Positions 25,060 to 51,012 of a stretch of 64,000 nt of DNA are shown here, in pieces. Location of the stretch: NCBI GenBank assembly GCA_965199715.1, contig OZ241322.1, positions 1,536,001 to 1,600,000 on the forward strand, read 5' to 3'. Position 1 is the first letter of the stretch. The number at the start of each line of letters is the position of its first letter. The stretch is from Vicinamibacteria bacterium. Its GTDB lineage: Bacteria > Acidobacteriota > Vicinamibacteria > Marinacidobacterales > Marinacidobacteraceae. Made by a program: the position numbers and the translations under genes. The notes beneath the pieces were generated by a model, which was given only the letters and a program-made list of their open reading frames with translations, ran no database searches and had not been told where the DNA came from.

Positions 25060-25977
25060 GTGTCCCGCCTCGCCGTCGTCCTCCTCGCGTGCCTCCTGCT
25101 CGGCGGACAGGAAGCCCCGCTCCGCACCGCCGATCCGTTCCAGCGGGGCCTGACCGAGGCCGATTTTCCGCGGGTGCGGGAGCTCGCGCCCGGCGTGTAC
25201 TCCTACGCGCAGCTTCGTTCGGCCGGGGAGGAGCTCTTCACCACGGTGAGCCTCTTCGTCGTGACCGACGAGGGCGTGCTCGTGGCCGACGGGCAGGGCG
25301 ACTTCGAGGAGACGTCGCGGATGGTCGAGATGATCGGCGGGATCACCGACCAGCCGATCACCCACGTCGTGATCTGCTCGGACCACGGCGACCACACCGC
25401 CGGCAACGGCGCGTTCCCCGAGGGAGTCGAGTACGTCGTCCACGAGAATTCGGTCGCGCCGATGGAGGCGATGGTGGAGCGCATCCCCGGGATCCCCATG
25501 CCGCGAACGGTGATCGGTGACCGGCTCGACCTGACGCTCGGCGGCCGGGAGATCCAGGTCCGCTTCCTCGGGCGGGCGCACACCGGCGGCGATCTGGTGG
25601 TGTTCCTGCCCGAGGAGAGCGTGCTGTTCCTCGGCGAGACCTTCCTCCACCGGGTGTACCCGGCGATGCGCTCGGCCTACCCCACCGAGTGGGTCGCGAT
25701 GCTCCGGGCCGCCCAGGCCTTGGGGGCGCGTTGGAACGTGCCCGGGCACGGGTTCGTGGACGACCCCGACGTCCTCGAGGAGGAGCTCGGCGTCGCGGTC
25801 GAGGCCATCGAGACGGTGATCGCCGAATCCACCCGCCTCCACGGCCTCGGCCTCTCCCCGGAGGAAGCGCTGGAGCGGGCCGACTTCGGCGATCTGGAGA
25901 CCTGGTCGCTGCGGGACAGCCAGCGCGGCATGGCGCTGCGGCGCGTCTATCTGGAGCTCGACGGCGAACTGCCTTGA
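25060..25977 (+). CDS. secreted MBL-fold metallo-hydrolase (cyclase-like, degenerate metal motif)
   Basis: SDHGDH in place of HxHxDH, AHTGGD, VPGHG; TACGAT 7 nt before GTG. Confidence 0.78.
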   Translation: MSRLAVVLLACLLLGGQEAPLRTADPFQRGLTEADFPRVRELAPGVYSYAQLRSAGEELFTTVSLFVVTDEGVLVADGQGDFEETSRMVEMIGGITDQPITHVVICSDHGDHTAGNGAFPEGVEYVVHENSVAPMEAMVERIPGIPMPRTVIGDRLDLTLGGREIQVRFLGRAHTGGDLVVFLPEESVLFLGETFLHRVYPAMRSAYPTEWVAMLRAAQALGARWNVPGHGFVDDPDVLEEELGVAVEAIETVIAESTRLHGLGLSPEEALERADFGDLETWSLRDSQRGMALRRVYLELDGELP

Positions 25978-28202
25978 ACCGGACGGCTCTCGTCCTGGGG
26001 CTGCTTCTCCCCGCCGGGGCCCAGGCGCAGAACCGGATAAGCGGACAGGTCGTGGTCGAGCCGACCGGGCGCCCCGCCGCCGGGGCGGAGGTCGCGCTCG
26101 CCGGGACCGGGATCGAGGTTCGGGCGGACGAGGAGGGCCGGTTTGTTTTCGAGGACGTGGAAGTCGGCGCTTCGGTCTCGGTGCGCGTCCGTCTCGGCCC
26201 GCTCGCGGGCGAGGTCGCCGTCGCTGCGACTCCGGGGACCGACGTGACGCTGGATCCCATTCGGATCGGGATCGCGGGCGCCGCCCACGAACACGTGACG
26301 GTGCACGCGCTCGGAGGGCGGACTTCGACCTTCGGCGCGGTCACTTCGTTCGAGGGCGCGCAGTTGGTCGAGGGGTCGCCGACTCTCGCCGAACTCCTCG
26401 AAGGCGCCCCGGGCGTATCCATCCGGAGCCTCGGTCCCGGCCCGGCGCGCCCGATCATCCGCGGCTTCGACGGCGACCGGGTGGTCATCCTCGAGGACGG
26501 CGTCCGCACCGGCGACCTGAGCAGCCAGGCGGCGGAGCACGGCATGGCGCTCGATCCGGCGCGGGCGGAGCGCGTCGAAGTCATGCGCGCCCCGGCCTCG
26601 CTGCTCTACTCGTCGAGCGCGGTCGGCGGCGCGGTGCAGATCGTCTCGCCGGTCTCCGAGTCGTCCGCCATCGACGGCTTCGAGGGCCGCGCCAGCCTCG
26701 GCCTGACCGGCGCCGACGGGGGGCGCCATGGGAGCGCCCGGTTCGAGACCGGCGACGGGAGGTGGCTCGCGTGGAGCGGCGGGAGCGTCCGGCGGACCTC
26801 GGACTACCGCTCGCCGCTCGGAACCGTGTCCGGGTCGGCGACGGAAATGCGCCAGGGAGAGGCGGGGCTCGCGCTCCACGCCGACCACGCCCGGCTCGCC
26901 CTGAGCGCCCGCATGGACGACAGCCGCTTCGGCGTGCCGATGGCGGGCATGCTGCACGGCGCGGGGGACGAGGGCGTATCCGTGGACGTCGAGACCGCCC
27001 GGCGGCAGTTGCGCGCCGACGTGGGGCTCCGGGATCTCGGCCCGATCGCCGACGAGGCGCGTTTCGTGTTTCATTTCAGCGACTTCCGGCAGGATGAGGT
27101 CGAGACCGAGGGGAGCGGCCCGCCCGCGCTGGAGACCCGCCACGACAACCGCTCGCTGGTCGTGCGCGCCGACGTCCTCCGACGGGGCTCCCGCATCGAG
27201 AGCCGCGTCGGATTCTGGGGGCAGCTCCGGGACTTCGGTTCGGCCGGCCCGGAGGCGCTGGCGCCCGACGTGACGCACGTCGCGATCGCGGCGTTCGGCC
27301 TCGGCGAGATGCGGGTCGCCGACCGCCTCGCGCTGCTGCTCGGCGCGCGCCTCGAACAGAACGCGTACCACGCCGGGAATCGGGGGAGCCGCGAGGACGA
27401 TGACGACGAAGGGCCCGAGCTCGAGGCGCCGGTCGCCATTGACCGGGAGTTCGCCGGAGCCTCGGCGAGCGCCGGCTTCTCGTTCGATCTCGGCGGCGAC
27501 GCCGCGGTCGCGCTGAACGGAACCTTCGCGTCGCGGGCTCCGGCGCTCGAGGAGCTCTACAACTTCGGCCTCGACGCCGGCGTCCAGGCGTTCGAGGTCG
27601 GCGACCCGCACCTCGACGAGGAATCCATCCGGGGCGTGGATCTCAGCGTTCGCCGCGACGCGGACGCCGGATCGGGGAGCCTCACCTTCTTCCGGTACGC
27701 GATCGCGAACGCGACGTGGGGCGCGGCGCGCGCGGGGGCGGACGGCGTCGCCCTCATCGAGACCATGCAGGCGGACGCCGTGTATCTCGGGACGGAGCTG
27801 GACGCCCGCATCCGGATCGGGAGCGCGACGCTGCGCGCCACGGCCTCCTGGGTGGACGCGAAGTTTCCTGGCCGGTCACGGTTCGCCCCGCGGATTCCTC
27901 CGCTCCATGGCCGGATGCGGCTGGACCTTCCGGTCGCCGGAATGCGGTTCTCGCCGGCGCTGCGCTGGGCGCTGCGGATGGACCGCGTCCACGAGAGCGA
28001 GACCCCGACCGACGGCTTCGCGGTCTGGGACGCGACGCTCTCCCGGCTGTGGATCGTCGGCGGCGCCGAGCACCACGTCTCGCTCGTGGCCAGAAACCTC
28101 GCCGACTCGGTCTATCGCCGTCACACATCGGTCATCAAGGACGTGGCCGCGCAGGCCGGCCGCGGCGTCAACGTGGCGTGGGCCATCCGCTTCCGCCGTT
28201 GA
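25974..28202 (+). CDS. TonB-dependent receptor, ZnuD-like family (copy 1, His-poor)
   Basis: signal peptide, N-terminal Ig-like domain, plug motif GPGPARPIIRGFDGDRV, RAPALEELY; TTGA overlap with MBL gene. Confidence 0.88.
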   Translation: MNRTALVLGLLLPAGAQAQNRISGQVVVEPTGRPAAGAEVALAGTGIEVRADEEGRFVFEDVEVGASVSVRVRLGPLAGEVAVAATPGTDVTLDPIRIGIAGAAHEHVTVHALGGRTSTFGAVTSFEGAQLVEGSPTLAELLEGAPGVSIRSLGPGPARPIIRGFDGDRVVILEDGVRTGDLSSQAAEHGMALDPARAERVEVMRAPASLLYSSSAVGGAVQIVSPVSESSAIDGFEGRASLGLTGADGGRHGSARFETGDGRWLAWSGGSVRRTSDYRSPLGTVSGSATEMRQGEAGLALHADHARLALSARMDDSRFGVPMAGMLHGAGDEGVSVDVETARRQLRADVGLRDLGPIADEARFVFHFSDFRQDEVETEGSGPPALETRHDNRSLVVRADVLRRGSRIESRVGFWGQLRDFGSAGPEALAPDVTHVAIAAFGLGEMRVADRLALLLGARLEQNAYHAGNRGSREDDDDEGPELEAPVAIDREFAGASASAGFSFDLGGDAAVALNGTFASRAPALEELYNFGLDAGVQAFEVGDPHLDEESIRGVDLSVRRDADAGSGSLTFFRYAIANATWGAARAGADGVALIETMQADAVYLGTELDARIRIGSATLRATASWVDAKFPGRSRFAPRIPPLHGRMRLDLPVAGMRFSPALRWALRMDRVHESETPTDGFAVWDATLSRLWIVGGAEHHVSLVARNLADSVYRRHTSVIKDVAAQAGRGVNVAWAIRFRR

Positions 28203-28207
28203 CGTGC

Positions 28208-28216
28208 TGCTAACAT
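28208..28216 (+). promoter_or_regulatory. extended -10 promoter TGCTAACAT of leader peptide 1
   Basis: TGn-TAACAT 11 nt before ATG 28228; same element and spacing at 31046. Confidence 0.6.
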
Positions 28217-28227
28217 GGTCGGCCGCC

Positions 28228-28491
28228 ATGCCTCCCCGCGCCCGATTCCTCGTAGTCGGGCTCGCGGCCTGCCTGCTGGTCGCCGCGCCCCTCGCGCTGG
28301 CCCTGCATGAGCACGAGGCGGAAGAGCACTGCGATCCGTGTCGCATGGGCGGTCCCTCGCTCGGGGCCCTCCGGTTCGACCCCGTTCTGGTCACGGCGCC
28401 GCAGCCCGAGGAATGCGTCCTCGAGGCGCACCCGGCCCCGCGTTCGGAAGCGCGATCGACCACGTGCGGTCCACGCGCTCCGCCGGCCTGA
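28228..28491 (+). CDS. secreted leader/arrest peptide with HxH, CxxC and C-terminal RAPP (CruR/CutF/DUF2946-like), 87 aa
   Basis: MPPRARFLVVGLAACLLVAAPLALA-LHEHEAEEHCDPC...GPRAPPA*; directly upstream of a TonB receptor; paralog at 31066. Confidence 0.85.
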   Translation: MPPRARFLVVGLAACLLVAAPLALALHEHEAEEHCDPCRMGGPSLGALRFDPVLVTAPQPEECVLEAHPAPRSEARSTTCGPRAPPA

Positions 28492-28553
28492 CGGTCGGCG
28501 CGCAAACTCTCGGGATCGGGCCGCCCCCGCCGGCGGGCCTCTAGCAGTTCGTC

Positions 28554-28577
28554 CCTCCATGTCCTCACGCAGGAGGT
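28554..28577 (+). promoter_or_regulatory. putative SD-sequestering hairpin of TonB receptor 2
   Basis: CCTCC (28554-28558) complementary to GGAGG (28572-28576), 8 nt before ATG 28585. Confidence 0.55.
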
Positions 28578-28584
28578 GCGTTCA

Positions 28585-30999
28585 ATGTCGAGGAGACTCT
28601 CTCCCTTTCTTTCTTGTTGTTGTTGCGGGCTGGCCCTCGCCGCTCCCGCCGCAGCCCAGACCCTGACCGGGACCGTCGCCTTCGAGGCGAGCGGTGCGCC
28701 GGCCCGCTCCGCCGAGGTGGTCGTGCTCGAGACCGATCAGGTCACCCATACCGAGAGCGACGGCCGGTTCGAGATCGAGCTCGCCGAGCGGCTCGACGAG
28801 TACACCGTCCACGTGGAGCTCGCGTTCCACACCGCGCAGAACACCGTCGCCGTGGAGCCCGATCAGTCCATGATCGAGCTTCAGGTTCCCATCCTGCTCC
28901 GCCTCGGCCGCCTGCATGAGCGGGTGACCGTGAGCGCGTCGGCCAGCGCCGAGGCCCCGCTGGAGGCGTTCGGATCGCTGCACGCTCTTTCCGGCGTCGA
29001 GCTCCAGAACGTGCCCGCCCGCAATCTGGCCGAACTTCTCGAGGGCACGCCGGGAATCGCGATCCGCAGCTACGGACCCGGCGCCGCACGCCCGATCGTG
29101 CGCGGGTTCGACGGCGACCGCGTCCTCATCATGGAGGACGGCGTCGGCACCGGCGATCTTGGAAGCAACTCCGCCGACCACGGCGTGCCCGTGGATCCGC
29201 TCCAGGCGGAGCGGGTCGAGGTCGTGCGGGGGCCGGCGACGCTGCTCTACGGCTCGAACGCGATCGGCGGCGCGGTGAACGTGATCTCGATGGCGTCGCA
29301 CCTGTCGAACGGGCCCCCGCCGGGGTTCCGGGGACACGCCAACGTGGATTACTCGACGGCCGACGAGGGACGCCGGGGCGGCGCCCGGTTCCAGGCCGCC
29401 GGAAGCGGCTGGTTCGCTTGGGGCGGCGGAAACTCGAACCGCACCGGCGACTACGAGTCGCCGACCGGCGTGGTGCCCAACTCCGAGACCTCGATGGACC
29501 AGGGCGAGGCCGGATTGGGCGTCTTCGGCGACCGGGCGTGGTTCTCCGGCAGCGTCCGGATCGACGACTACAGCTACGGCGTCCCGTACGCCGGCGAGTT
29601 CCACGGTTCGCACGACCACCACGGGCACGGCGAGGAGATGGGCCATGACGACCACGGGCGCGACGAACGCATGGAGGAGGAAGGCCACGAGGAGGAGCTC
29701 CAGATCGACGTGACCATGAACCGCCGCCAGTTACGCTCGGATTTCGGCGTCCGCGAGCTCGGCGCGGTCTTCGACGAGGCCGAGCTCACCGTTCGGTATA
29801 GCGATTACGACCAGGACGAGGGGGAGCTGTTCGCCGGCGCGACGGAAGAGGTCCTCGCCACGCACTTCGACAACCGCTCGCTCGTCCTCCGGGGCGAGCT
29901 CAAGAAGCCCGCCGGCCGCTGGACCAGCCGGGTCGGGCTGTGGAGCCACTTCCGCGAATACCAGGCGTCGGGGGAGGAATCGCTCGCGCCGAAGACGCGG
30001 CAGAATGCCTTCGCGGCCTTCGCCTACAACGAGTTCGAGACCAACGACCGGCTCTCGTTCCTCATCGGCGCGCGACTGGGGCGCAACGCCTACGACCCCG
30101 AGGCTCGGGTCGAGTCGGATGGGCATGGTCGTGAAGAGGCGGTGGAGGAAGGCCACGAGGGGCACGACCACGGCCATGACCACGGGCACGAGGAGGAAGA
30201 GGCGCACGAAGAGGAGCGCGAAGCCCCGGCGCCCATCGACCGGGACTTCATCGCCGTCTCCGGCAGCGCCGGGGCCCGCCTGTCGCTGACCGACGACACC
30301 GCGCTGGTCGGCACCGCCAGCCTCTCGACCCGCGCGCCCTCGATCGAGGAGCTCTACAACTTCGGCCTCCACGGCGGGACCCGGTCCTTCGACATCGGGA
30401 ACCCGAGCCTCGACCCCGAGCGGTCGCTCGGCCTCGAACTGGGCCTGCGCCACAGCTCGGACATGTTCTCCGGCAGCGCGAGCTTCTTCCGCTACGACAT
30501 CGCCGACTTCATCTTCGGCGTGGACACGGGGGAACGGGTGGAAGGACTCTCCGTGCTCCGGTTCTTGCAGTCGGACGCCGTCTATCAGGGATACGAGGTG
30601 GAGGGGCACGCCGACCTCGGGCCGGCGGAGCTCGTGGCGAACGCCTCCTACGTGGACGCGACGCTCACCCAGACCGACGAGAGCGCACCGCGCATCCCGC
30701 CGCTCCAGGGCCAGTTGCGGCTCGACGTGCCCTTCGGCGAACTCCGGCTCTCGCCCCGGCTTCGCTGGGCGTCTCGCATGGACCGGCTCTACCGGAACGA
30801 GGAGGCGACCGACGGCTACGCGGTGTTCGACTTCACGGCGTCGTACGTGATCGTCACCGGAAGCGCCGTCTCGAACATCTCGCTGCGGGCCTACAACGTC
30901 ACCGACGCCGAGTACCGGTTCCACACCTCGCTCATCAAGGATCTCGCCCCGCAGATGGGCCGCGGGTTCCGGATCAGCTATTCGATCCAGTTCTTCTAG
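28585..30999 (+). CDS. TonB-dependent receptor, ZnuD-like with His/Glu-rich loops (copy 2)
   Basis: RPIVRGFDGDRV, EVVRGPATLLYGSNAIGGAVN, loops HGSHDHHGHG and GHEGHDHGHDHGHE, terminal YSIQFF. Confidence 0.92.
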   Translation: MSRRLSPFLSCCCCGLALAAPAAAQTLTGTVAFEASGAPARSAEVVVLETDQVTHTESDGRFEIELAERLDEYTVHVELAFHTAQNTVAVEPDQSMIELQVPILLRLGRLHERVTVSASASAEAPLEAFGSLHALSGVELQNVPARNLAELLEGTPGIAIRSYGPGAARPIVRGFDGDRVLIMEDGVGTGDLGSNSADHGVPVDPLQAERVEVVRGPATLLYGSNAIGGAVNVISMASHLSNGPPPGFRGHANVDYSTADEGRRGGARFQAAGSGWFAWGGGNSNRTGDYESPTGVVPNSETSMDQGEAGLGVFGDRAWFSGSVRIDDYSYGVPYAGEFHGSHDHHGHGEEMGHDDHGRDERMEEEGHEEELQIDVTMNRRQLRSDFGVRELGAVFDEAELTVRYSDYDQDEGELFAGATEEVLATHFDNRSLVLRGELKKPAGRWTSRVGLWSHFREYQASGEESLAPKTRQNAFAAFAYNEFETNDRLSFLIGARLGRNAYDPEARVESDGHGREEAVEEGHEGHDHGHDHGHEEEEAHEEEREAPAPIDRDFIAVSGSAGARLSLTDDTALVGTASLSTRAPSIEELYNFGLHGGTRSFDIGNPSLDPERSLGLELGLRHSSDMFSGSASFFRYDIADFIFGVDTGERVEGLSVLRFLQSDAVYQGYEVEGHADLGPAELVANASYVDATLTQTDESAPRIPPLQGQLRLDVPFGELRLSPRLRWASRMDRLYRNEEATDGYAVFDFTASYVIVTGSAVSNISLRAYNVTDAEYRFHTSLIKDLAPQMGRGFRISYSIQFF

Positions 31000-31008
31000 G
31001 GGGTCGCC

Positions 31009-31037
31009 GGGCGGCGGGGCTCCGGCTCCCGCCGTCC
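31009..31037 (+). terminator. GC-rich hairpin after receptor 2 (possible terminator, no U tract)
   Basis: GGGCGGCGGG..CCCGCCGTCC inverted repeat 10 nt after the stop codon. Confidence 0.4.
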
Positions 31038-31045
31038 ACCGATGG

Positions 31046-31054
31046 TGCTAGCAT
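31046..31054 (+). promoter_or_regulatory. extended -10 promoter TGCTAGCAT of leader peptide 2
   Basis: 11 nt before ATG 31066, matches the 28208 element. Confidence 0.6.
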
Positions 31055-31065
31055 CGCCGGACGCC

Positions 31066-31314
31066 ATGGCTCGGTCGGTTCGGTTCGTCGTCTTGGGGGT
31101 CGTGGCTTGCCTGCTGGTCGCCGCGCCCCTCGCGCTCGCCCTGCACGACCACGCGGAGTCGCGCTGCCACGGCTGCGAGACGCCGTCGGCGTCGGCGGTC
31201 GAGGCCCCGCCCGGCCTCGCGCCCGCGCCCGAGGCCGGCGAGCGCCCGGAACGCAATGTCCAGGCTCCCGCCCCTCCCGCAAACTCCCGGAATCCGCGCG
31301 CGCCGCCGGCCTGA
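31066..31314 (+). CDS. secreted leader/arrest peptide with HxH, CxxC and C-terminal RAPP (CruR/CutF/DUF2946-like), 82 aa
   Basis: MARSVRFVVLGVVACLLVAAPLALA-LHDHAESRCHGC...NPRAPPA*. Confidence 0.85.
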   Translation: MARSVRFVVLGVVACLLVAAPLALALHDHAESRCHGCETPSASAVEAPPGLAPAPEAGERPERNVQAPAPPANSRNPRAPPA

Positions 31315-31356
31315 GGGCCGGCGATCCTGCGTTCGGGAGCGGAATGCCCCGCCCGC

Positions 31357-31394
31357 GGGCCTTCCTTCCCTTTCGAGAGCGCCCGGAGGTGCCC
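31357..31394 (+). promoter_or_regulatory. putative SD-sequestering hairpin of TonB receptor 3
   Basis: GGGCCTTCC (31357-31365) can pair with GGAGGTGCCC (31385-31394), covering the SD of ATG 31397. Confidence 0.6.
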
Positions 31395-31396
31395 TC

Positions 31397-33748
31397 ATGT
31401 CGCGAACGACCCTTCTCCTTGCGTGCGCCCTCGCGCTGACCGGCGGCGCCGCCGCCCAGACCATCTCCGGAAGCGTCGTGATCGGCGCGAACAGGGAACC
31501 GGCGCACGGCGCCGAGGTCGCGGTGATCGAGACGAACCAGCTCGCCCACACCGGCGAAGACGGCCGATTCGAGATCGAGCTCGCCGAGCGGCATGACGAC
31601 GTCACGCTTCACGTGGAACTGGGATTCCTCGCCGCGAACCACAGCGTCGTCACGGCGGGCCAGGACATGGTCGAGATCGAGGGCTCCATCGTGCTCCACG
31701 CCGGCCACCGCCACGAGCAGGTGACGGTGAGCGCGTCGGCCCGCGACGTCGTTCCGCTCGAGGCGTTCGGGTCCCTGCACGCCCTCTCCGGGCTCGAGCT
31801 CCAGCACGTTCCGGCCCGCAACGTGGCGGAGCTGCTGGAAGGCACGCCCGGCGTGGCGGTGCGCAGCTTCGGTCCCGGTTCGGCCCGCCCGATCGTGCGC
31901 GGGTTCGACGGGGACCGGGTCCTCGTCATGGAGGACGGAATCCGCACCGGGGATCTCGCGAGCCAGTCGGCGGACCACGGCGTGCCGGTGGACCCCCTCC
32001 AGGCGGAGCGGGTCGAGGTCGTGCGGGGGCCGGCGACGCTGCTCTACGGGTCCAACGCGATCGGCGGCGCGGTGAACGTGATCTCGATGGCGTCGCACCT
32101 CGCGCACGGGCCGCCGCCGGGATTCCGGGGACAGGCCAACGTGGACTACTCCACCGCCGACGAGGGCCGGCGCGCCGGCGCCCGGTTCCAGGCCTCCGGG
32201 CACGGCTGGTTCGCCTGGGGCGGCGGCAACTCGAGCCGCACCGGCGACTACGAGTCGCCGACCGGCGTCGTCGAGAACACGCACAGCGCGATGGACCAGG
32301 GCGAGGCCGGGTTCGGGCTCTTCGGCGACCGGGCGTGGTTCTCCGGCAGCGTCCGGATCGACGACTCGCGCTACGGGGTCCCGTTCGCCGGGGAGTTCCA
32401 CGCCGCGCACGAGGGCGACGACGGTCACGACCACGGCCACGGGCACGACCATGGGGACGAAGAAGCGGAGGAGGAGCTTCTGGTGGACGTGACCATGGAG
32501 CGGCGGCAGTTCCGCACCGACTTCGGCCTGCGGGAGCTGGGCGCGGTCTTCGAGGAGGCCGAGTTCACCGTGCGGTACAGCGACTACGACCAGGACGAGA
32601 TCGAGGAATTCGTCGCGACCGGGGAGGAGATCACCGCCACCCACTTCGACAACCGCTCGCTCGTCGTGCGGGGCGAGCTCAAGAAGCCCACCGGCCGCTG
32701 GACCAGCCGCGTCGGGATGTGGGGCAACTTCCGCGACTACGAGGCCGCCGGACACGAGGCGCTCGCGCCGAGGACCCGCCAGAACGTCCTCGCGGCCTTC
32801 GCCTACAACGAGTTGGAGACTTCGGACCGGCTCACGTTCCTCCTCGGCGGGCGCGTCGCGCGCAACGCCTACGACACCGAGGACCGCGCCGAGGCCGACC
32901 ACGCCGAGGAAGAGGAGACCGGCCACGAGGGACACGATCACGGCCACGGCCACGGCGAGGAAGAAGAGGAGGAGGCCCCGCCGGTCCGGGACCGGGACTT
33001 CCTCGCGGTCTCGGGCAGCGCCGGCGCCCGCCTCTCGCTGGCCGACGAAACCGCGCTGGTCGGCACGGCGAGCCTCTCGACCCGCGCGCCCTCGCTGGAG
33101 GAGCTCTACAACTTCGGCCCCCACGTCGGGAACCTCGCCTTCGAGATCGGCAACGCGAACCTCGACTCCGAGCAGTCGCTCGGCTTCGAGCTGGGCCTGC
33201 GCCACAGCTCGGACCGGTTCACCGGCAGCGCGAGCTTCTTCCGCTACGACATCGCCGACTTCATCTACGGCGTGGACACCGGCGAACGCGACGGCCTCCG
33301 GGTGCTCCAGTTCCTGCAGGGGGACGCCGTCTATCAGGGATACGAGGTGGAGGGGCACGCCGATCTCGGGCCGGCGGAGCTCGTGGCGAACGCTTCCTAC
33401 GTGGACGCGAAGCTCACCCAGACCGACGAGAGCGCACCGCGCATCCCGCCGCTCCAGGGCCAGTTGCGGCTCGACGTGCCCTTCGGCGAACTCCGGCTCT
33501 CGCCCCGGATGCGCTGGGCGGCCCGCATGAACCGGCTCTACGGCGTCGAGACCCCGACCGACGGCTACGCGGTGTTCGACTTCACCGCCTCCTACGTGAT
33601 CGTGAGCGCCCACACCGTCTCGAACATCTCGCTTCGGGCCTCCAACCTCACCGACGCCGACTACCGCTTCCACACCTCGCTCATCAAGGACTTCACCCCG
33701 AACGCGGGGCGCGGGTTCCAGATCAGCTACTCGATCCGGTTCTTCTGA
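31397..33748 (+). CDS. TonB-dependent receptor, ZnuD-like with His/Glu-rich loops (copy 3)
   Basis: close paralog of copy 2; loops GHDHGHGHDHG and GHEGHDHGHGHG; terminal YSIRFF. Confidence 0.92.
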   Translation: MSRTTLLLACALALTGGAAAQTISGSVVIGANREPAHGAEVAVIETNQLAHTGEDGRFEIELAERHDDVTLHVELGFLAANHSVVTAGQDMVEIEGSIVLHAGHRHEQVTVSASARDVVPLEAFGSLHALSGLELQHVPARNVAELLEGTPGVAVRSFGPGSARPIVRGFDGDRVLVMEDGIRTGDLASQSADHGVPVDPLQAERVEVVRGPATLLYGSNAIGGAVNVISMASHLAHGPPPGFRGQANVDYSTADEGRRAGARFQASGHGWFAWGGGNSSRTGDYESPTGVVENTHSAMDQGEAGFGLFGDRAWFSGSVRIDDSRYGVPFAGEFHAAHEGDDGHDHGHGHDHGDEEAEEELLVDVTMERRQFRTDFGLRELGAVFEEAEFTVRYSDYDQDEIEEFVATGEEITATHFDNRSLVVRGELKKPTGRWTSRVGMWGNFRDYEAAGHEALAPRTRQNVLAAFAYNELETSDRLTFLLGGRVARNAYDTEDRAEADHAEEEETGHEGHDHGHGHGEEEEEEAPPVRDRDFLAVSGSAGARLSLADETALVGTASLSTRAPSLEELYNFGPHVGNLAFEIGNANLDSEQSLGFELGLRHSSDRFTGSASFFRYDIADFIYGVDTGERDGLRVLQFLQGDAVYQGYEVEGHADLGPAELVANASYVDAKLTQTDESAPRIPPLQGQLRLDVPFGELRLSPRMRWAARMNRLYGVETPTDGYAVFDFTASYVIVSAHTVSNISLRASNLTDADYRFHTSLIKDFTPNAGRGFQISYSIRFF

Positions 33749-33818
33749 CGTGCGGCGCCTGACGCGCTCCGGCCAGGGTTCTCCGCAGAGAACCGACCAG
33801 AGCGCGGAGGGCGTCGTC

Positions 33819-34126
33819 GTGTTGCGAGGGCTGTTATTTCTTTCCTGCGGTCTGGCGCTCGCCGGCTCCGCCGTCGCCCGGACCGTCTCCGGAACCGTCG
33901 TCATCGAGGCGATCGGAGAACACGCCCACGCCGCGGAGGTGGTCGTCGTCGAGACCGGTCAGGTCGCCCACACCGACCACCACGGCCGGTTCGAGATCGA
34001 GCGCTCGGAGCGGGTCGGCGAGGTCACTTCGACGTGGCGCGCCCGACCAGGACATGGTCGAACTCGAAGAGCCGATCGTGCTTCACGTCGGCTGCCGGGG
34101 CGTCTCCGCTGGAGGCGTTCGGATCG
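33819..34126 (+). pseudogene. truncated, frameshifted fourth copy of the ZnuD-like receptor
   Basis: signal peptide + AEVVVVETGQVAHTDHHGRFEIE, then QDMVELEEPIVLH and SPLEAFGS in other frames, then abrupt end. Confidence 0.8.
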
Positions 34127-34760
34127 GTGTTGAACGTGAACGCCGGCCGCTGCCCGCCGCGCTGCTCCCCGAAGAAGGGGTTGTTGAAGTCCGCGCCGTC
34201 CACGATGAAGCTGTTGAAGATGCCGCGCTGGCCGTTGATGTTCAGCCCGTACCCGTCCGGCCCCTGCGAGACCGCGGCGCCCGGAATCAGCAGCGTCGGG
34301 TCGAGGAAGTTGCGGCCGTTGCTCGGCACCGCGTCCACGATTTCTTCCCTCAGGCGCTGCGAGCGCGTGACGCCGGTGGTCTCGGTCGGCGCCTTAAGCT
34401 CGCCGAACACGGTCACCGTGTCGGACGTCACAACCCGCAGCGTGAGGTGCAGGTCGAGCATCTCGCCGACCCGCAGGATCGCTCCCTCGATCCGCTCGGT
34501 CCCGTAGTTCGGATCCGGCGGAGCGACGGTCGGTCGTAGGTTCCCGGCGGCAGCAGCGACCGGGCGAATGCGCCCGACCGGCCGGTCTCCACCGTGGTCG
34601 AGAGGTCGGTCTCCCGGTGGCGGATCAGGATCGTCGCGCCCGGAACCACGTCGCCGACGGGATCCGCGACCTCGCCCCGGATCACGCCGGTCGTGGCGCC
34701 GGCCTGGCCCGCGGCTTCGGCGGCGGGAACGAGCGCGAGCACGAATGACAGCTTCCGCAT
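34126..34760 (-). pseudogene. 5' remnant of an Oar-like TonB-dependent receptor
   Basis: TTGVIRGEVADPVG..VPGATI..LPPGTY, frameshift, then VPSNGRNFLD..INGQRG..VDGADFNNPFFG; barrel absent. Confidence 0.8.
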
Positions 34761-34798
34761 GAGGCGGGGATTATGGTCCTGCGGGTAGAGTCAGCCGC

Positions 34799-35932: not shown

Positions 35933-37121
35933 CGATCCGGCCCCGGGCCATCGCGAGCCGCACCCGCCCCAGCGCGCGGACATCCCGGCTGGGGTCGCCC
36001 TCGACGACGACGAGGTCCGCGACGTAGCCCGGCGCGAGCGTCCCGATCTCGTCGCCGAGGCCGAGCGACTCGGCGGCTAGCGAGGTGAGGCTCACCACGA
36101 GATCCCCGGGGTCCTGCCCGCCCCGCTCCACCCGGGCGAACGCCTCGCGGGCGTTGTGGCCGTGTGCTCCGGCGACCGCGTCCGTCCCGAAGACCACTCG
36201 CAGCCCGTCGGTCGCGAGCGCGGTCCGGAACACGTCCATCCGGCCCTCGAGGTTCTCCTCCATCAGCCGGAACCCCTCCTCGGTGTAGTTCCCGATCCCC
36301 AGGTATCGCTCCTTGTTCTCGAGGTAATTCGCGACGATGAGGTACGTGTTCGGGTCGAAGAAGAGCCCCTCCTCGGCGAGAAGCTCGAGCGTCGCCGGGT
36401 CCAGCAGCGATCCGTGCTCGATCGTGGTGCATCCGGCCCGGGCGGCGCGGGTCGCGCTCACCGGGCCGTGGGCATGGACGAGCGTCCGCAGCCCGCGCTC
36501 CCTCGCCGCGCCGCAGGCGGCTTCGAGCTGCTCCGCCGACAGGGTGGGGCCGCCGCCGTCGCGGCTGCTCTCGGACGCGAAGATCTTGATCGCGTCGGCT
36601 CCGAGGTCAGCGAGCCGATGCGCCTCGGCGGCGAGCTCGTCCGGGCCTCCGGTTCGCGCCGCGAGGCTCCCGAGCGAGCTCAGGATGCGGGGACCGGGAA
36701 CCCGCCCCCGCCGGATCGCGTCGCGGACCGGTCCGTCCACCGGATCGCCGAGGCTCTGGACCGTCGTGAAGCCGGCCTCCAGCATCAGCATCCCGTTTTC
36801 CACCGCGTGAACCGCGGCGGCCGCGGGCGAAGCGCCCCGCGCCAGCCGTCCCTCCCCGTCGAAATGCCAGCTCAGGTGGACGTGCGTGTCGATGAAGCCG
36901 GGGAGGATCGTCCCGCCGGGGAAGTCGAGCGTCGCGTCCGGCAGTTCCGAGCGCGGCGCAACCGCGACGATCCGCCCGTCCCGGACCATCACCCCGTGGT
37001 CCTCGAGGACGCCGCCGCGCCCGTCGAGCACGCGGTCGGCGGCGATGACCGCCGTCCCCGGAGGAGCCGGCTCGCCGCAGCTCGCGGCGAGGAGGAGAAC
37101 GAGCGCCCGGAGGCGGCTCAA
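35925..37121 (-). CDS. amidohydrolase family lipoprotein (paralog 2)
   Basis: LAASC lipobox, PGFIDTHVH, HAHG, IEHG, FGTDA; colinear with 7946-9139. Confidence 0.88.
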   Translation of the reverse strand: MSRLRALVLLLAASCGEPAPPGTAVIAADRVLDGRGGVLEDHGVMVRDGRIVAVAPRSELPDATLDFPGGTILPGFIDTHVHLSWHFDGEGRLARGASPAAAAVHAVENGMLMLEAGFTTVQSLGDPVDGPVRDAIRRGRVPGPRILSSLGSLAARTGGPDELAAEAHRLADLGADAIKIFASESSRDGGGPTLSAEQLEAACGAARERGLRTLVHAHGPVSATRAARAGCTTIEHGSLLDPATLELLAEEGLFFDPNTYLIVANYLENKERYLGIGNYTEEGFRLMEENLEGRMDVFRTALATDGLRVVFGTDAVAGAHGHNAREAFARVERGGQDPGDLVVSLTSLAAESLGLGDEIGTLAPGYVADLVVVEGDPSRDVRALGRVRLAMARGRIVR

Positions 37122-38326
37122 CTCCACAGCCCGAGCACTCTCCCGAGAGTGAAGCCGGCGATGACCGCCACCACGAGGATCCCCAGCACGTTGGCGAGCC
37201 GGCCGTTGCGGGCCGCCCCGACGATGGACTTGCGGTTCACGACGACGAGCAGCAGGATGAGCGTCAGCGGCAGCACGACCCCGTTGCCCGCCTGCGCGAG
37301 CACGATGATCTGGTAGGGGGACGCGCCGAGGATCGTCCCGAACAGCATGCCGCTCAGCAGCACGAACGCCCACAGCGCCCGGAAGCGGCCGCTCTTCAGG
37401 TCGGCCTTCCACCCGAACGCGCCGGCCGCGGCGTAGGCGCCGGCGAGCGGCGCGGTGACCGCCGAGGTCAGCCCGGCGGCGAAGAGGCCGATTCCGAAGA
37501 ACAGCGGCGCCGCCGGCCCGAGCAGCGGCTCGAGCTGCTCCGCCACGGCCGCGGCGTTCGCGGCCTCGGCGCCCTGCCCGAAGAGGCGCGACGCCGAGAC
37601 CACGACCGCCGTCGTGATGAGCCCGCCGAGCGCCACCGAGAACAGGATGTCCCGGCGACTCTCCTTGATGTTCTCGGCGGTCCGGTCCGCGTCGGGCCAG
37701 CGCTCCATCGAGGTGCTGGCGTGCAGGAACAGGTTGTAGGAGACGACCGTGGTGCCGATGAGCGCCATGACGGTGAGCGTCGAGCCGTCCGGGATCGTGG
37801 GCACGAGGAACCCGGAGACGAGATCGCCGACGCTCGGCGCGGTCATCACCGCGACCACGCAGAAGACCACGCTCATGAGCCCCACGAGGAAGACCAGCGC
37901 GTTCTGGATCGTCTTGTAGGCCCCGGTGAGCAACAGCCCGCCTGCGGCGCCGCCGATGACGAGCACCAGCAGCCACTGCGGGACGCCGGTGATGAGGCTC
38001 ACCCCGAGCGCGGCCCCGAGCAGGTTGCCGGTCTGGAACGCGGCGTTGCCCAGCAGGATCGTGACCGCGATCAGGCCGAGGACGAGGACCTGCGCGGCGG
38101 GGCCTCCGAGGCTGTCGCGGATGGCCTCCGCGAGCCCGCGCCGGCCGGCGATCCCGACCCGCGCCGCCATGTCCTGGAGCACGCAGGTGGCGAAGACCGC
38201 GAAGAGCACGGTCCACAGCAGCGCGAGGCCGTAGCCGGCGCCGGCGCGGCTCGCGGTGACGATGGTCCCCGGGCCGATGAAGGCGGCGGTGACCAGAAAC
38301 CCCGGGCCTGGACGAAAACGGCTCAT
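37118..38326 (-). CDS. NRAMP-like divalent metal transporter (YcsG-like subgroup)
   Basis: multiple TM helices, AAFIGPGT, GNAAFQTGN, IGTTVVSYNLFLH. Confidence 0.82.
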   Translation of the reverse strand: MSRFRPGPGFLVTAAFIGPGTIVTASRAGAGYGLALLWTVLFAVFATCVLQDMAARVGIAGRRGLAEAIRDSLGGPAAQVLVLGLIAVTILLGNAAFQTGNLLGAALGVSLITGVPQWLLVLVIGGAAGGLLLTGAYKTIQNALVFLVGLMSVVFCVVAVMTAPSVGDLVSGFLVPTIPDGSTLTVMALIGTTVVSYNLFLHASTSMERWPDADRTAENIKESRRDILFSVALGGLITTAVVVSASRLFGQGAEAANAAAVAEQLEPLLGPAAPLFFGIGLFAAGLTSAVTAPLAGAYAAAGAFGWKADLKSGRFRALWAFVLLSGMLFGTILGASPYQIIVLAQAGNGVVLPLTLILLLVVVNRKSIVGAARNGRLANVLGILVVAVIAGFTLGRVLGLWS

Positions 38327-41743: not shown

Positions 41744-42021
41744 GAGCGCGCCGGAGCGAAGTCCGTCGCCGCGTGCGGGCGGTGCGCCGGAACCGTCTTC
41801 CTCGCGCGTCGGTGGCGGATCACCACGGAGGCGCCGATCCCGAAGAGCAGATACGGCATCCCCAGCAGGAACAGGATGCCCCGGTTGAAGCCGGCGGCGG
41901 CCTCGGGGTTCTGTTCCAGCGCGGTTCGGCACATCGCGCACTGCGCCGCCGCGTCCTCGGGGGCGAGGAACGGGAGCGCGATCGCGACGAGGAGCGCCAG
42001 CGCGGGAAGGCGCGCGGTCAT
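41740..42021 (-). CDS. small membrane protein with AQCAMC motif (oxidase-associated)
   Basis: signal peptide, CAMC, TM GILFLLGMPY; ATGA overlap with subunit IV. Confidence 0.7.
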   Translation of the reverse strand: MTARLPALALLVAIALPFLAPEDAAAQCAMCRTALEQNPEAAAGFNRGILFLLGMPYLLFGIGASVVIRHRRARKTVPAHRPHAATDFAPARS

Positions 42022-42314
42022 CGGCTGCTCGCGAGGATGTGGAGGCCGTCGTACGCGGGCAGCACGAACATCAGGATGCTGGTCAGGAAAAGACCCACGA
42101 GCACCGTCAGGATGAGCTGCATGTGCTCGAACTTGAGGTGCATGTAGTAGAAGATGATGAGGGTCGCCTTGATGGCCGATCCGAAGAGCACGAGGCTGAG
42201 CGCCAGCGCGGTGGGCAACGACGCGCCCTCGATGGCGATCATGAGAAGGGTGACGGCCAGCAGGACGCCCCAGAGGATCCAGTAGCCCCGGTAGGGATGC
42301 GCGGACGAACTCAT
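42018..42314 (-). CDS. cytochrome c oxidase subunit IV
   Basis: three TM helices, KATLIIFYYMHLKFE. Confidence 0.85.
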   Translation of the reverse strand: MSSSAHPYRGYWILWGVLLAVTLLMIAIEGASLPTALALSLVLFGSAIKATLIIFYYMHLKFEHMQLILTVLVGLFLTSILMFVLPAYDGLHILASSR

Positions 42315-42326
42315 GAAATCCCCTCC

Positions 42327-42932
42327 TCAGACCAGGTAGAACAAGGCGAACACAAAGACCCAGACAAGGTCCACGAAGTGCCAGTAAAGGCCGGCGTTCT
42401 CGACCCCGGCCGCCGAATACTTCCCGAGCGCCGAGCGGATCGCGACGACGAGCAGCACGGTCACGCCGGTGAGGACGTGGAAGCCGTGGAAGCCGGTGAT
42501 GATGAAGAAGAACTGGCTGAAGGTCGGCGAACCCCACGGGTTCCCGGTGATGCCGCCGCCCTCGGCGATGAAGTGGCTCCACTCGTACACCTGCATGCCG
42601 AGGAAGCCGAAGCCGCCGATGATCGTGAGCCACAAGAAGAGCGTGACCCGGTCCTTGCGCCCCATCTCGGCCGCCGCGACCGCGCAGGCCATGGTGGCCG
42701 ACGAGCTGATGAGCACGAAGGTCATCGCCGCGATGTAGGTGAGGCTGAAGACCTCCGACTGCTCGGGCCAATCGCCGGTGGCGATGCGGACCACGCCGTA
42801 GGACACCAGCAGGCCAGCGAAGAGCAGGGCGTCGGTGACGATGAAGAACCACATCATGGTCTTCTGCCAGGTGGCGCCGAAGGGGCTGGCGCCGCCGCCC
42901 CAATCGGCCTCTGCGAGCACGGTCTGGCTCAT
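42327..42932 (-). CDS. ctaE: cytochrome c oxidase subunit III
   Basis: MMWFFIVTD, TGFHGFHV, GLYWHFVDLVW. Confidence 0.9.
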   Translation of the reverse strand: MSQTVLAEADWGGGASPFGATWQKTMMWFFIVTDALLFAGLLVSYGVVRIATGDWPEQSEVFSLTYIAAMTFVLISSSATMACAVAAAEMGRKDRVTLFLWLTIIGGFGFLGMQVYEWSHFIAEGGGITGNPWGSPTFSQFFFIITGFHGFHVLTGVTVLLVVAIRSALGKYSAAGVENAGLYWHFVDLVWVFVFALFYLV

Positions 42933-42963
42933 GCGGCCTCCTGTTTCCCGATGCCCGGAAACG

Positions 42964-43548
42964 TCATCCGAGCAGGAACATCACGGCCAGCAGATAGATC
43001 CACAGACCGCCGACGAAATGCCAGTAGATGGCGGTGAGGGTCGGAGCGTCCGACCGTCCGGGGACGAGGCGTCCGACGGCCGCGAGCAGCGCGACCGCGA
43101 CGAGAGCGACCACGCCCGCGAGCAGATGCGCCCCGTGCACTCCGGTCAATACGAAGAAGAACGAACTCTTGGGGTGGCTTTGGAGGTACACCCCGGCGTC
43201 CTGGAGCGCCCGCCACGAGGCGAGCTGGCAGGCGAGGAATCCGACCCCAAGCGCCGCCGTCGCGAGCATCGCGTTCCGGAACGCCGGAAGCCGCCCGCCC
43301 TGGAACGCCCGCCGCGCCCGTTCGAGCGACGCCGAGCTGAGCAGGATCAGCGCGGTGCCGAGCCACAGGACGGCGGGCGGCTCGAGCGCCACCCAGTCGC
43401 TTCCGCCGCTGCGGACGATGTACGCCGAGGTGAACGCGGCGAACAGCATGGTGATCCCCGCGAGCCCGACGAGCATGCCGAGCCGGTTCACGAACCGGCG
43501 ATCCGCCGGTCCGCCGCCCGCGGCCGCTTCGAAATGCGCAGTGGTCAT
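42964..43548 (-). CDS. cytochrome c oxidase subunit III (second copy)
   Basis: MLFAAFTSAY, LTGVHGAH, YWHFVGGLW. Confidence 0.88.
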   Translation of the reverse strand: MTTAHFEAAAGGGPADRRFVNRLGMLVGLAGITMLFAAFTSAYIVRSGGSDWVALEPPAVLWLGTALILLSSASLERARRAFQGGRLPAFRNAMLATAALGVGFLACQLASWRALQDAGVYLQSHPKSSFFFVLTGVHGAHLLAGVVALVAVALLAAVGRLVPGRSDAPTLTAIYWHFVGGLWIYLLAVMFLLG

Positions 43549-43558
43549 GGGGATCCCG

Positions 43559-45286: not shown

Positions 45287-45311
45287 CGTGTTCTCCAGTG
45301 ACTCCGGGGCG

Positions 45312-46133
45312 TCAGTTCCCGGCGGCGGGGGCGTTTTGGGCCACCCAGGCCTCGTAGTCGCCCGCCTCCATGACCTCGAGGAAGGCGCGCATCCGGTAGT
45401 GGCCGAGACCGCACAGCTCGGCGCAGGCCACCTCGTAGTTGCCGGTCTTGATCGGCGTGAACCACACCTCGGTGCTCATGCCCGGAACCAGGTCGCGCTT
45501 GACCCGGAAGTTGGGCAGGAAGAAGGCGTGCTGGACGTCCTTCGAGCGCAGGAGGATCCGCGCCGGGCGGTCCACCGGGAGCACCAACTGGTTCGTGAGC
45601 ACCCAGTCGTCGGCGGCCGCCGGATCCGCGCCGTCGAGCCCGATCTGGTTGTCGATGGCGTACAGCTCGGGGTTGAAGCGCCCGAACTCGCCGTCCGCGC
45701 CCGGATAGTGGAAGTCCCACTGGAACTGCGCACCGACCGCGATGACGGTGACCGCGTCGTCGGGGGCCGGCTCGTTCACCCGCTCCCAGTACACGAGGCC
45801 GGTGAGCACGATCGGGACGAGGATGACCGCGGTCCCGAGCGTCCAGAACATCTCGAGCCGGTGGCTCTCGTGCCAGTTCGAGGCGACCGCGCCGGGCCGG
45901 TCGCGGTAGCGCCACACCACCCAGCCGAGCGCCACCTGGTAGAGCACGAAGGCGACGCCGGTGATCGCGAGGATGATGTTGTAGAGGCTGTCGAGATAGG
46001 CCCGGTCGGACGCCAGCTCGGGGACTCCGTAGCGGAAGAAGTAGGCGACCGAGGCCGCAACCATCACCCACAGGAACAAGGCGAAGGCGATTCCCGCGAG
46101 GCCGCCGGAAGCCGCTTTCGGATCGTCTGCCAT
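45312..46133 (-). CDS. ctaC: cytochrome c oxidase subunit II (CuA)
   Basis: two TM helices, DVQHAF, CAELCGLGHYRM. Confidence 0.93.
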   Translation of the reverse strand: MADDPKAASGGLAGIAFALFLWVMVAASVAYFFRYGVPELASDRAYLDSLYNIILAITGVAFVLYQVALGWVVWRYRDRPGAVASNWHESHRLEMFWTLGTAVILVPIVLTGLVYWERVNEPAPDDAVTVIAVGAQFQWDFHYPGADGEFGRFNPELYAIDNQIGLDGADPAAADDWVLTNQLVLPVDRPARILLRSKDVQHAFFLPNFRVKRDLVPGMSTEVWFTPIKTGNYEVACAELCGLGHYRMRAFLEVMEAGDYEAWVAQNAPAAGN

Positions 46134-46191
46134 GAGGTCTTCTCCTGATTTCCGAACAGGACTCAACGGACCTGCGGGCGCCGCGCCCGCA

Positions 46192-48999: not shown

Positions 49000-49011
49000 G
49001 ACGAACCGTTC

Positions 49012-50133: not shown

Positions 50134-50196
50134 GCTGTCAGCCGTTTCGGGTTTCGGTTGCGGGGGCGGAGATCACGGGATGACGACTGCGGCCGG

Positions 50197-50997: not shown

Positions 50998-51012
50998 GGG
51001 CGGGCGCTCCGA

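Follow-up and report, generated by a model that had tools for sequence, protein, structure and literature searches.

The closest described relative of the locus analyzed here is CruR (Bp2923), whose pairing with the TonB-dependent transporter BfrG in Bordetella pertussis was published in 2022 (Roy et al., PMC9426467). CruR is an exported, operon-head open reading frame (ORF) in which arrest of the ribosome at a near-C-terminal RAPP blocks Rho-dependent termination, and copper relieves the arrest (PMC9426467). The parts of that study on which we draw describe its family, DUF2946, as having CxxC and RAPP 45 residues apart within one or two, with RAPP three residues from the end; more than 95% of members carry an export signal, and the genes stand first in operons, many of which encode TonB-dependent transporters. 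In vitro, CruR arrests when its two Pro codons occupy the P and A sites, and among arrest cores the strongest are RAPP and RGPP (PMC12992588). Here we examine a 64,000-nucleotide (nt) stretch of DNA from a Vicinamibacteria bacterium (phylum Acidobacteriota; GenBank assembly GCA_965199715.1, contig OZ241322.1, positions 1,536,001 to 1,600,000 of the forward strand; hereafter the window), in which two short upstream ORFs, uORF1 and uORF2, each precede a TonB-dependent receptor gene. We put a probability of roughly 0.7 on the reading that each of these modules is a cis-acting, metal-responsive leader of the CruR/DUF2946 type placed before a ZnuD-like outer-membrane importer.

Other arrest peptides invite comparison. 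CutF, of the CutF-CutO system of Rhodobacter capsulatus (Ozturk et al. 2023, PMC9973294), is also a DUF2946 protein; it combines a Sec signal and a Cys motif with a Pro-rich C-terminus, and a stem-loop there covers the downstream Shine-Dalgarno (SD) sequence. It differs in that its motifs are CxxxC and PPP rather than CxxC and RAPP and in that its target is a detoxifying oxidase switched ON by copper, whereas the target here is an importer; SD masking, moreover, lacks statistical support here. A class described by Fujiwara in 2025 (PMC12992588) comprises small secretory ORFs ending in RAPP or RGPP before TonB-dependent receptors across Gram-negative phyla, but that survey drew on annotated proteomes, and the acidobacterial leaders described below are mostly unannotated or named "hypothetical protein". 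These RAPP/RGPP ORFs, together with the TonB-type neighbors and non-copper DUF2946 members noted in the 2023 CutF paper (PMC9973294), make it too strong to call the arrangement undescribed, as the first-pass annotation of this DNA, made from the letters alone, had done. ApdA, ApdP, and SecM are likewise exported leaders with a C-terminal RAPP-type arrest core (RAGP in SecM), but they precede protein-export genes and have neither a metal motif nor a fixed Cys-to-RAPP spacing. A Sec- or YidC-monitoring role, of the type found upstream of secDF, secA, and yidC, was set aside because the genes downstream here encode TonB-dependent receptors. To judge from their anatomy, the modules are an unannotated addition to the known CruR/DUF2946 regulatory system and not a new kind.

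Results and Discussion

Layout of the Two Modules

The window has a G+C content of 71%, and both modules lie on its + strand. Their parts are as follows (aa, amino acids; MFE, minimum free energy).

28208-30999, + strand: module 1, consisting of a TGCTAnCAT motif, uORF1, a 93-nt spacer, and receptor A
28208-28216, + strand: extended -10-like motif of module 1, TGCTAACAT, 11 nt 5' of the uORF1 ATG (28228)
28228-28491, + strand: uORF1, 87-aa leader peptide, ending RAPP-Ala-TGA
28482-28499, + strand: predicted 7-bp hairpin (MFE folds), its loop enclosing the uORF1 stop codon
28492-28584, + strand: spacer of module 1, 93 nt, with a GC-rich hairpin at about 28518-28539, an anti-SD CCUCC at 28554-28558, and an SD GGAGG at 28572-28576
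28585-30999, + strand: receptor A, 804-aa TonB-dependent receptor (Pfam)
31046-33748, + strand: module 2, consisting of a TGCTAnCAT motif, uORF2, an 82-nt spacer, and receptor B
31046-31054, + strand: extended -10-like motif of module 2, TGCTAGCAT, 11 nt 5' of the uORF2 ATG (31066)
31066-31314, + strand: uORF2, 82-aa leader peptide, ending RAPP-Ala-TGA
31304-31323, + strand: predicted 8-bp hairpin (MFE folds), its loop enclosing the uORF2 stop codon
31315-31396, + strand: spacer of module 2, 82 nt, with a hairpin at about 31335-31370 and an SD GGAGG at 31385-31389
31397-33748, + strand: receptor B, 783-aa TonB-dependent receptor (Pfam)

This order of motif, 11 nt, uORF, spacer, and receptor, occurring twice, was claimed in the first-pass annotation, and every coordinate and motif string was confirmed in the sequence. 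Both leaders head their modules, with a promoter-like motif 5', a spacer of 82-93 nt, and a receptor 3'. The CruR-type anatomy claimed for them is also present: a predicted export signal, CxxC, a C-terminal RAPP, a long spacer, and a TonB-dependent receptor. To these likenesses can be added a C>G skew over the leader, a link to the family by profile hidden Markov model (HMM), and, in uORF1 though not in uORF2, a Cys-to-RAPP spacer close to the 45 residues of the CruR family. The differences from CruR (PMC9426467) lie in length (145 aa, compared with 82-87 here), in the distance of RAPP from the end (three residues, compared with one), and in the intergenic spacer (162 nt, compared with 82-93). 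As described there, the CruR family also has a semi-conserved upstream Cys, where the peptides here have HxH beside CxxC; the window peptides further differ in falling below Pfam detection and in preceding a ZnuD-like receptor.

The Leader Peptides

The uORF1 peptide has an Arg-rich N-terminus followed by a 20-residue hydrophobic segment (residues 7-26), HxH at residues 27-29 (nt 28306-28314), CxxC at 35-38 (nt 28330-28341), and RAPP at 83-86 (nt 28474-28485). In uORF2, HxH again occupies residues 27-29, with CxxC at 34-37 (nt 31165-31176) and RAPP at 78-81 (nt 31297-31308); an in-frame ATG is also present at 31042 and overlaps the extended -10-like motif. By inspection, each peptide opens with a predicted export signal made of two Arg, 20 hydrophobic residues, and then Ala-Leu-Ala. 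The two have the stretch ACLLVAAPLALALH.H in common and both end in PRAPPA-stop. The step from HxH to CxxC is five residues in uORF1 (H29 to C35) and four in uORF2 (H29 to C34), and the poorly conserved linker between CxxC and RAPP measures 44 and 40 residues, respectively.

The peptides are 50% identical (E 1e-6, BLASTP), and the length differences between them all preserve the reading frame. The GC content by codon position, lowest at the second position (GC2) and 0.81-0.88 at the third (GC3), is consistent with coding. RAPP followed by 0-3 residues and a stop ends four ORFs in the six frames of the window, two of which are these leaders. When an HMM of 58 relatives, with no window rows included, was run against the 567 stop-to-stop ORFs of at least 50 aa in the window, uORF1 and uORF2 ranked first and second (E 3.8e-6 and 1.4e-3; the next ORF, 0.47). 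Because frame and motifs are conserved in relatives (see below), and given these profile ranks and the GC pattern, the sequence evidence indicates that both ORFs are genuine leader peptides that have been conserved.

Conservation Upstream of Related Receptors

Receptor B was aligned with 20 database relatives, and 80 related loci were taken from one-genome-per-species contigs. Titles place 77 of the 80 in Acidobacteriota and the others in Gemmatimonadota (L025), Woeseiaceae (L029), and Clostridia (L043). The closest loci are from Vicinamibacteria, at 56-69% identity (L001-L005, L007, L040); others come from Blastocatellia, Pyrinomonadaceae, Bryobacteraceae, and Terriglobia. A leader was defined as a + strand ORF of at least 40 codons that ends in R[AG]PP plus 0-5 residues and lies at most 450 nt upstream of the receptor start, and the 79 loci with at least 350 nt upstream were counted. 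Such an ORF precedes the receptor in 62 of the 79. Elsewhere in the same loci, on both strands, 17 such ends were found in 1,245,976 nt, or 0.007 per equal-sized stretch, and 13 of the 17 are additional copies of the same leader family. Set against this background, the presence of the leader is not due to chance.

What is kept in these peptides is confined to few positions. CxxC and Arg are separated by 44 residues in 38 of the 62 leaders, by 45 in 10, by 43 in six, by 41 in one, and by 52 in one; a spacing of 43-45 thus covers 54 of the 62, and the 44 of uORF1 is the family mode. The arrest motif is RAPP in 49 and RGPP in 13, and it is trailed by 1-3 residues in 56. An alignment of 60 leaders (58 relatives and the two from the window; four of the 62 were omitted, having no start codon by the assignment rule) has a mean column identity of 23%, and its invariant columns are solely the second Cys, the Arg, and the two Pro. 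Among 150 database relatives, the first His of HxH beside CxxC (H45) is invariant and the second (H47) is kept in at least 90%. Six leaders (L026, L027, L031, L035, L037, L038) are without the first Cys and have a His-rich stretch and a single Cys with R[AG]PP retained; these may be a variant with a different metal site.

Further leaders with HxH, CxxC, 43-45 spacing, and RAPP or RGPP precede other genes in L006, L013, L014, L021, and L022. Among the 12 ORFs examined downstream of such leaders are three ABC-transporter ATPases and four SGL/NHL beta-propeller proteins, so receptors are not the only genes that the leader family accompanies.

These comparisons bear on whether the ORFs are translated at all. 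If they were not, the similarity of the two copies would merely record a recent duplication of a receptor with its upstream DNA. The modules are indeed paralogous (78% identity between 28205-28318 and 31043-31156), no gene caller recorded the ORFs, and a word-index search with uORF1 matched nothing. However, the frame and the motif set are kept in 62 of 79 loci over acidobacterial classes at peptide identities of 15-43%, and both the GC2 and GC3 values and the frame-preserving length differences fit coding; we consider untranslated ORFs highly improbable.

The pattern of conservation also speaks to the idea that the ORFs encode stable secreted or membrane-anchored metal-binding proteins that act in trans as chaperones or accessory factors, with RAPP having no regulatory part. 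An export signal, conserved His and Cys, and co-orientation with a putative metal receptor would suit such a protein. A variable 44-residue linker would not suit a folded one, since the metal motif, the spacing, and R[AG]PP are all that is conserved, and outside the ends of small regulatory ORFs, proteomes show strong avoidance of RAPP-like motifs (PMC12992588). In the published accounts as far as we draw on them, CruR and CutF act in cis and the proteins themselves were not detected (PMC9426467, PMC9973294). A trans-acting protein therefore seems improbable, if somewhat less so than the absence of translation.

Family Assignment

Membership in DUF2946, which the first-pass annotation had suggested checking with the family HMM, holds for the family more directly than for the two window peptides. 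Of the 60 aligned leaders, 27 match PF11162 (DUF2946) at E ≤ 0.1 (best 1.8e-6), as do 71 of the 150 best database relatives at E ≤ 0.01, the top relative scoring 22.1 bits against a cutoff of 23.7; the window leaders join through the profile of their relatives. An exhaustive profile search returned 2,392 cluster representatives at E ≤ 1e-3, of which 245 reached E ≤ 1e-10; in all of them the match runs to the C-terminus. By hhalign, uORF1 aligns with the 150 database relatives at a probability of 88.9% (E 2.4e-6, 81 columns), and uORF2 is tied to the family by the profile of 58 members, by its similarity to uORF1, and by synteny. Scanned directly against Pfam and NCBIfam, neither peptide gave a usable match; the sole Pfam row, DUF7155 for uORF1 (E 0.12), was discarded. 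In public protein sets, two of 51 listed members are named, as "hypothetical protein". On these profile matches, the modules belong to the DUF2946 lineage at family level.

Promoter Motif and Proposed Mechanism

The extended -10 motif claimed upstream of each uORF is both present twice in the window and conserved. Within -70 to +45 of the assigned start, TGnTAnnnT occurs in 33 of the 60 leaders compared with 1.8% of 8,994 control windows, and the stricter TGCTAnnnT in 17 of the 60 compared with 0.39% of controls. A two-hexamer sigma-70 promoter scan found nothing at the modules, which fits an extended -10 that lacks a -35. In leaders with an unambiguous start codon, 6-13 nt separate the motif from the start, which implies that the leader mRNA would be leaderless or carry a very short 5' leader.

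We propose that the modules work as follows. The extended -10 promoter would give an mRNA starting a few bases 5' of the leader ATG; the leader would be translated, its N-terminus acting as an export signal, and the ribosome would stall at Arg-Ala-Pro-Pro, two codons from the stop. At the stall, the HxH/CxxC metal site, 44 residues back, would be just out of the exit tunnel. By analogy with CruR, the stalled ribosome would sustain receptor expression by blocking Rho-dependent termination in the C>G leader and spacer, and the stall may also disturb spacer structures, including the anti-SD:SD helix. Plentiful metal would bind the nascent site and release the arrest, and receptor synthesis would drop. 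Given ZnuD-type importers, repression by metal makes physiological sense. The scheme builds on what was observed, namely a conserved anatomy with fixed spacing and a link to DUF2946; we infer from that family the stalling itself, its direction (stall = ON), and the role of Rho. Fully extended, 44 residues would correspond approximately to the length of the exit tunnel plus the translocon, and the sensor at arrest would accordingly sit either at the tunnel exit, in the cytoplasm, as in the CruR view, or at the far mouth of SecYEG, in the periplasm, as in the CutF view. Base composition is compatible with a part for Rho: C exceeds G in 58 of the 60 leaders and 50 of the 60 spacers, compared with 22 of the 60 receptor 5' parts, and the rut site of CruR is located in a C>G region (PMC9426467).

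Several observations weigh against this proposal. The spacer skew is modest (mean C 0.33, G 0.28), and spacers that are 82-93 nt long (162 in CruR), GC-rich, and predicted to be structured are unfavorable for Rho loading. No such leader was found at 17 of the 79 related receptors. The window peptides have no PF11162 match even at E ≤ 1, hhalign matched uORF2 to the database relatives over its N-terminal 19 residues only (probability 5.5%), and the word-index homolog search with uORF1 gave no match among 14 candidates, not even the window's own sequence. Finally, the 40-residue spacing of uORF2 is outside the family range. In CruR, a five-residue change in spacing strongly cut the copper response (PMC9426467); since the spacing of leader 2 is off-family and CruR is sensitive to spacing, leader 2, with four spacer residues lost, may respond differently or be blind to metal.

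Spacer RNA and Possible SD Unmasking

A different route from stall to receptor is the CutF/SecM type of unmasking, in which a RAPP stall during export would remodel the spacer and free an SD locked by the anti-SD, with periplasmic metal altering how long the stall lasts. CutF operates in this way (PMC9973294; bioRxiv 10.1101/2025.02.05.636593). The first-pass annotation had claimed an anti-SD/SD hairpin in both modules. In module 1, the MFE structure does pair CCUCC (28554-28558) with the SD GGAGG (28572-28576), but in module 2 two of the five SD bases are paired, and these in a different local hairpin. RNAalifold of nine close spacers predicts a GGCC/GGCC hairpin and the CCUCC:GGAGG (anti-SD:SD) helix, the latter with 88.9% of cells kept and two pairs changed on both sides. 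For both helices together, 91% of cells pair, compared with 42-67% with slid partners, and three pairs are changed on both sides; 8 of 500 shuffles do as well. The conservation of these helices in nine related spacers is suggestive. Family-wide, however, masking is at the level of shuffled sequence: among the 51 of 60 leaders with a placeable SD and start, SD pairing is 0.77 compared with 0.74 in shuffled spacers, and the folding energies of the two modules are no better than those of shuffles (z -0.32 for module 1 and -1.08 for module 2).

The position of the ribosome also argues against unmasking. The anti-SD lies about 60 nt past the stall site and is therefore out of the ribosome's reach, and folding with and without the ribosome footprint, a check put forward together with the original claim, gave no opening of the hairpin: upon in silico refolding without the covered bases, the SD stays paired in module 1 and the structure is unchanged in module 2. 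We accordingly rejected a relay of alternative helices by which a stalled ribosome would free the SD. The predicted hairpins that hold the stop codons in their loops would be melted by a stalled ribosome, a point in favor of unmasking. The 5' arm of the uORF1 hairpin consists of the Pro-Pro-Ala codons, and close relatives retain the 3' arm, GGNCGGC, including those in which the 5' arm is unpaired; because the 5' arm fails to pair in several of these relatives, we claim no function for this hairpin. The GGNCGGC sequence just past the leader stop (28492-28503 and 31315-31323) is conserved in L001-L005, L007, and L040. The motifs are, in addition, CruR-like (CxxC and RAPP) rather than the CxxxC and PPP of CutF. 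On balance, we regard unmasking as possible but doubtful. In view of the evidence against simple SD unmasking, Rho coupling of the CruR type is favored, to which the anti-SD helix may contribute. A search of 27900-34200 against Rfam found no riboswitch or other family.

The Receptors and the Candidate Metals

Receptors A and B are 73% identical. Receptor A has a carboxypeptidase-regulatory-like N-domain, a plug, and a barrel (Pfam). Each receptor has two loops rich in His, Asp, and Glu.

29602-29697 (about aa 340-371) and 30124-30219 (about aa 514-545), + strand: His/Asp/Glu-rich loops of receptor A
32399-32476 (about aa 335-360) and 32900-32980 (about aa 502-528), + strand: His/Asp/Glu-rich loops of receptor B

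The designation of both receptors as ZnuD-like proved sound, ZnuD being the best match in NCBIfam, in the Protein Data Bank (PDB) by sequence, and by Foldseek. The NCBIfam scores (NF038289; 204.4 and 216.8 bits for A and B) are below the curated cutoff of 950. A phmmer search of PDB sequences with receptor A gave ZnuD 4rdr (E 6.2e-33), and an AlphaFold2 model of receptor B (pLDDT 70.2) gave ZnuD 4rdr (E 1.9e-37) and then OprC (E 1.7e-31). The likeness to the ZnuD of Neisseria meningitidis (4rdr) includes a His/Asp/Glu-rich loop at the position of loop 3; the differences are an identity of 21%, the added N-terminal carboxypeptidase-regulatory-like domain, and the second His-rich loop. ZnuD is under Zur control and, to our knowledge, has no leader peptide. 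It is a zinc-uptake receptor, and its loop 3, the zinc-capturing loop, spans residues 233-309 (PMC4557270); the first His-rich loop of receptor B aligns with region 256-313 of the ZnuD chain.

The nature of the receptors raises the question of which metal the leader would sense. The first-pass annotation proposed zinc, nickel, or cobalt, a reading that leans on the His-rich loops and that we consider a reasonable hypothesis. The nascent site of two His and two Cys would then report sufficiency of zinc (or Ni/Co) and shut off a ZnuD-like importer, taking the place of Zur. In favor of zinc are the closeness of ZnuD by NCBIfam, sequence, and fold, the position of the first His-rich loop, and the invariant or nearly invariant HxH beside CxxC in the 150 relatives. 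Leaders also precede ABC ATPases (three of the 12 downstream ORFs examined), and one receptor is followed by ABC-2/DUF3526; these neighbors recall the Zur-regulated znuK-znuGHI cluster of Caulobacter, where TonB-dependent receptors are also regulated by Zur (PMC4176598). No Zur- or Fur-like operator was noticed by eye at the modules, although no formal operator search was made. Some family members have, in addition, been argued to be non-copper-specific (PMC9973294).

Against zinc, both family prototypes that have been studied respond to copper in published experiments, CxxC is a classic Cu(I) site, and the copper transporter OprC is nearly as good a structural match as ZnuD. His-rich loops occur in just 14 of the 62 leader-linked receptors and in two of 18 leaderless ones, frequencies that led us to drop these loops as an uninformative correlate of the leader, and they are absent from the close orthologs in L002, L005, and L040. 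No zinc-specific gene is adjacent, and the window has no copper-specific gene near the modules either. The genes downstream of the receptor in the 62 loci are variable (M61-like peptidase, VWA, hydrolases, transposases), and none is metal-specific. We judge copper and zinc about equally likely as the sensed metal, and zinc sensing in place of Zur remains a tentative proposal with somewhat less than even odds. In the open-access literature (the supplements of PMC9973294 and PMC12992588 not covered), we found no report of a zinc-responsive member of the family or of a ZnuD with an arrest leader.

Duplication and Genomic Context

The two modules are 72-78% identical in DNA at their 5' ends and up to 91% identical over 300 nt near the receptor 3' ends, and this gradient from 5' to 3' points to a duplication with later exchange. 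From the alignments, leader and receptor were duplicated together in this lineage, giving the tandem pair. The tandem that the first-pass annotation had thought undescribed is thus present, but as a plain duplication. A near-identical 29-nt stretch in the signal-coding parts was dismissed as nothing special, since the receptor 3' ends contain tracts that are both longer and more alike. Two leaders in tandem also occur in L005 (3100-4620), where the first is followed by a receptor fragment only, matching residues 297-441 of receptor B; this pair looks like a decayed version of the tandem in the window. In several Vicinamibacterales loci, three or four leaders lie within 7-9 kb of one another.

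The modules are part of a + strand run of TonB-dependent receptor genes from 25973 to about 34130. The first receptor of the run (about 25973-28202, +), directly 3' of a metallo-beta-lactamase-fold gene (25060-25977), is a paralogous TonB-dependent receptor with neither a leader nor a His-rich loop. A leaderless second receptor copy also stands beside the leader-receptor module in other loci, upstream of it in L002 and L005 and downstream in L040. A third receptor copy begins about 70 nt past receptor B, with an SD and a GTG near 33820, and loses its frame after about 70 codons; it meets head-on the N-terminus of another receptor, truncated and with a broken frame, on the minus strand (34024-34760; carboxypeptidase-regulatory-like domain by Pfam). 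The stretch 33820-34770 is either the site of a rearrangement with two decayed receptor genes or a join made in assembly.

Elsewhere in the window, adjoining ORFs at 9392-14364 (+) with N6_N4_Mtase DNA methylase and ResIII helicase-nuclease domains resemble a type III restriction-modification system. A Nramp-family metal transporter (37118-38326, -) lies 3.4 kb downstream of the modules, and a cluster at 42018-51588 (-) encodes cytochrome c oxidase (COX1-4) and cytochrome b/Rieske proteins. We found no connection between the modules and the Nramp or cytochrome genes. The neighborhood within the window, which comprises Nramp, cytochrome oxidase and bc-type genes, amidohydrolases, and the restriction system, has no Zur, ZnuABC, CopA, or similar gene.

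Conclusions

What is new here is how large the acidobacterial branch is and how far it escapes notice, together with its HxH motif, its conserved extended -10 followed by a very short leader, and the natural 44/40 pair. A fuller reading, in which this unannotated DUF2946 branch is near-leaderless, senses zinc through HxH and CxxC, and replaces Zur, with the 44- and 40-residue leaders set to different thresholds, joins several steps and is unlikely as a whole. The leader is the usual arrangement at the sampled related receptor loci (62 of 79), yet annotation misses it: the peptides are uncalled or named "hypothetical protein" and fall below the Pfam threshold. A near-constant 44-residue spacing over distant lineages gives strong comparative support to a distance-dependent coupling between metal site and arrest motif, and the 44/40 pair in the window is a natural test of that spacing rule. 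If zinc is the metal, the modules would be the first case outside copper for which a target is defined. The modules would extend nascent-peptide metal sensing coupled to ribosome arrest, recently found, to the Acidobacteriota.

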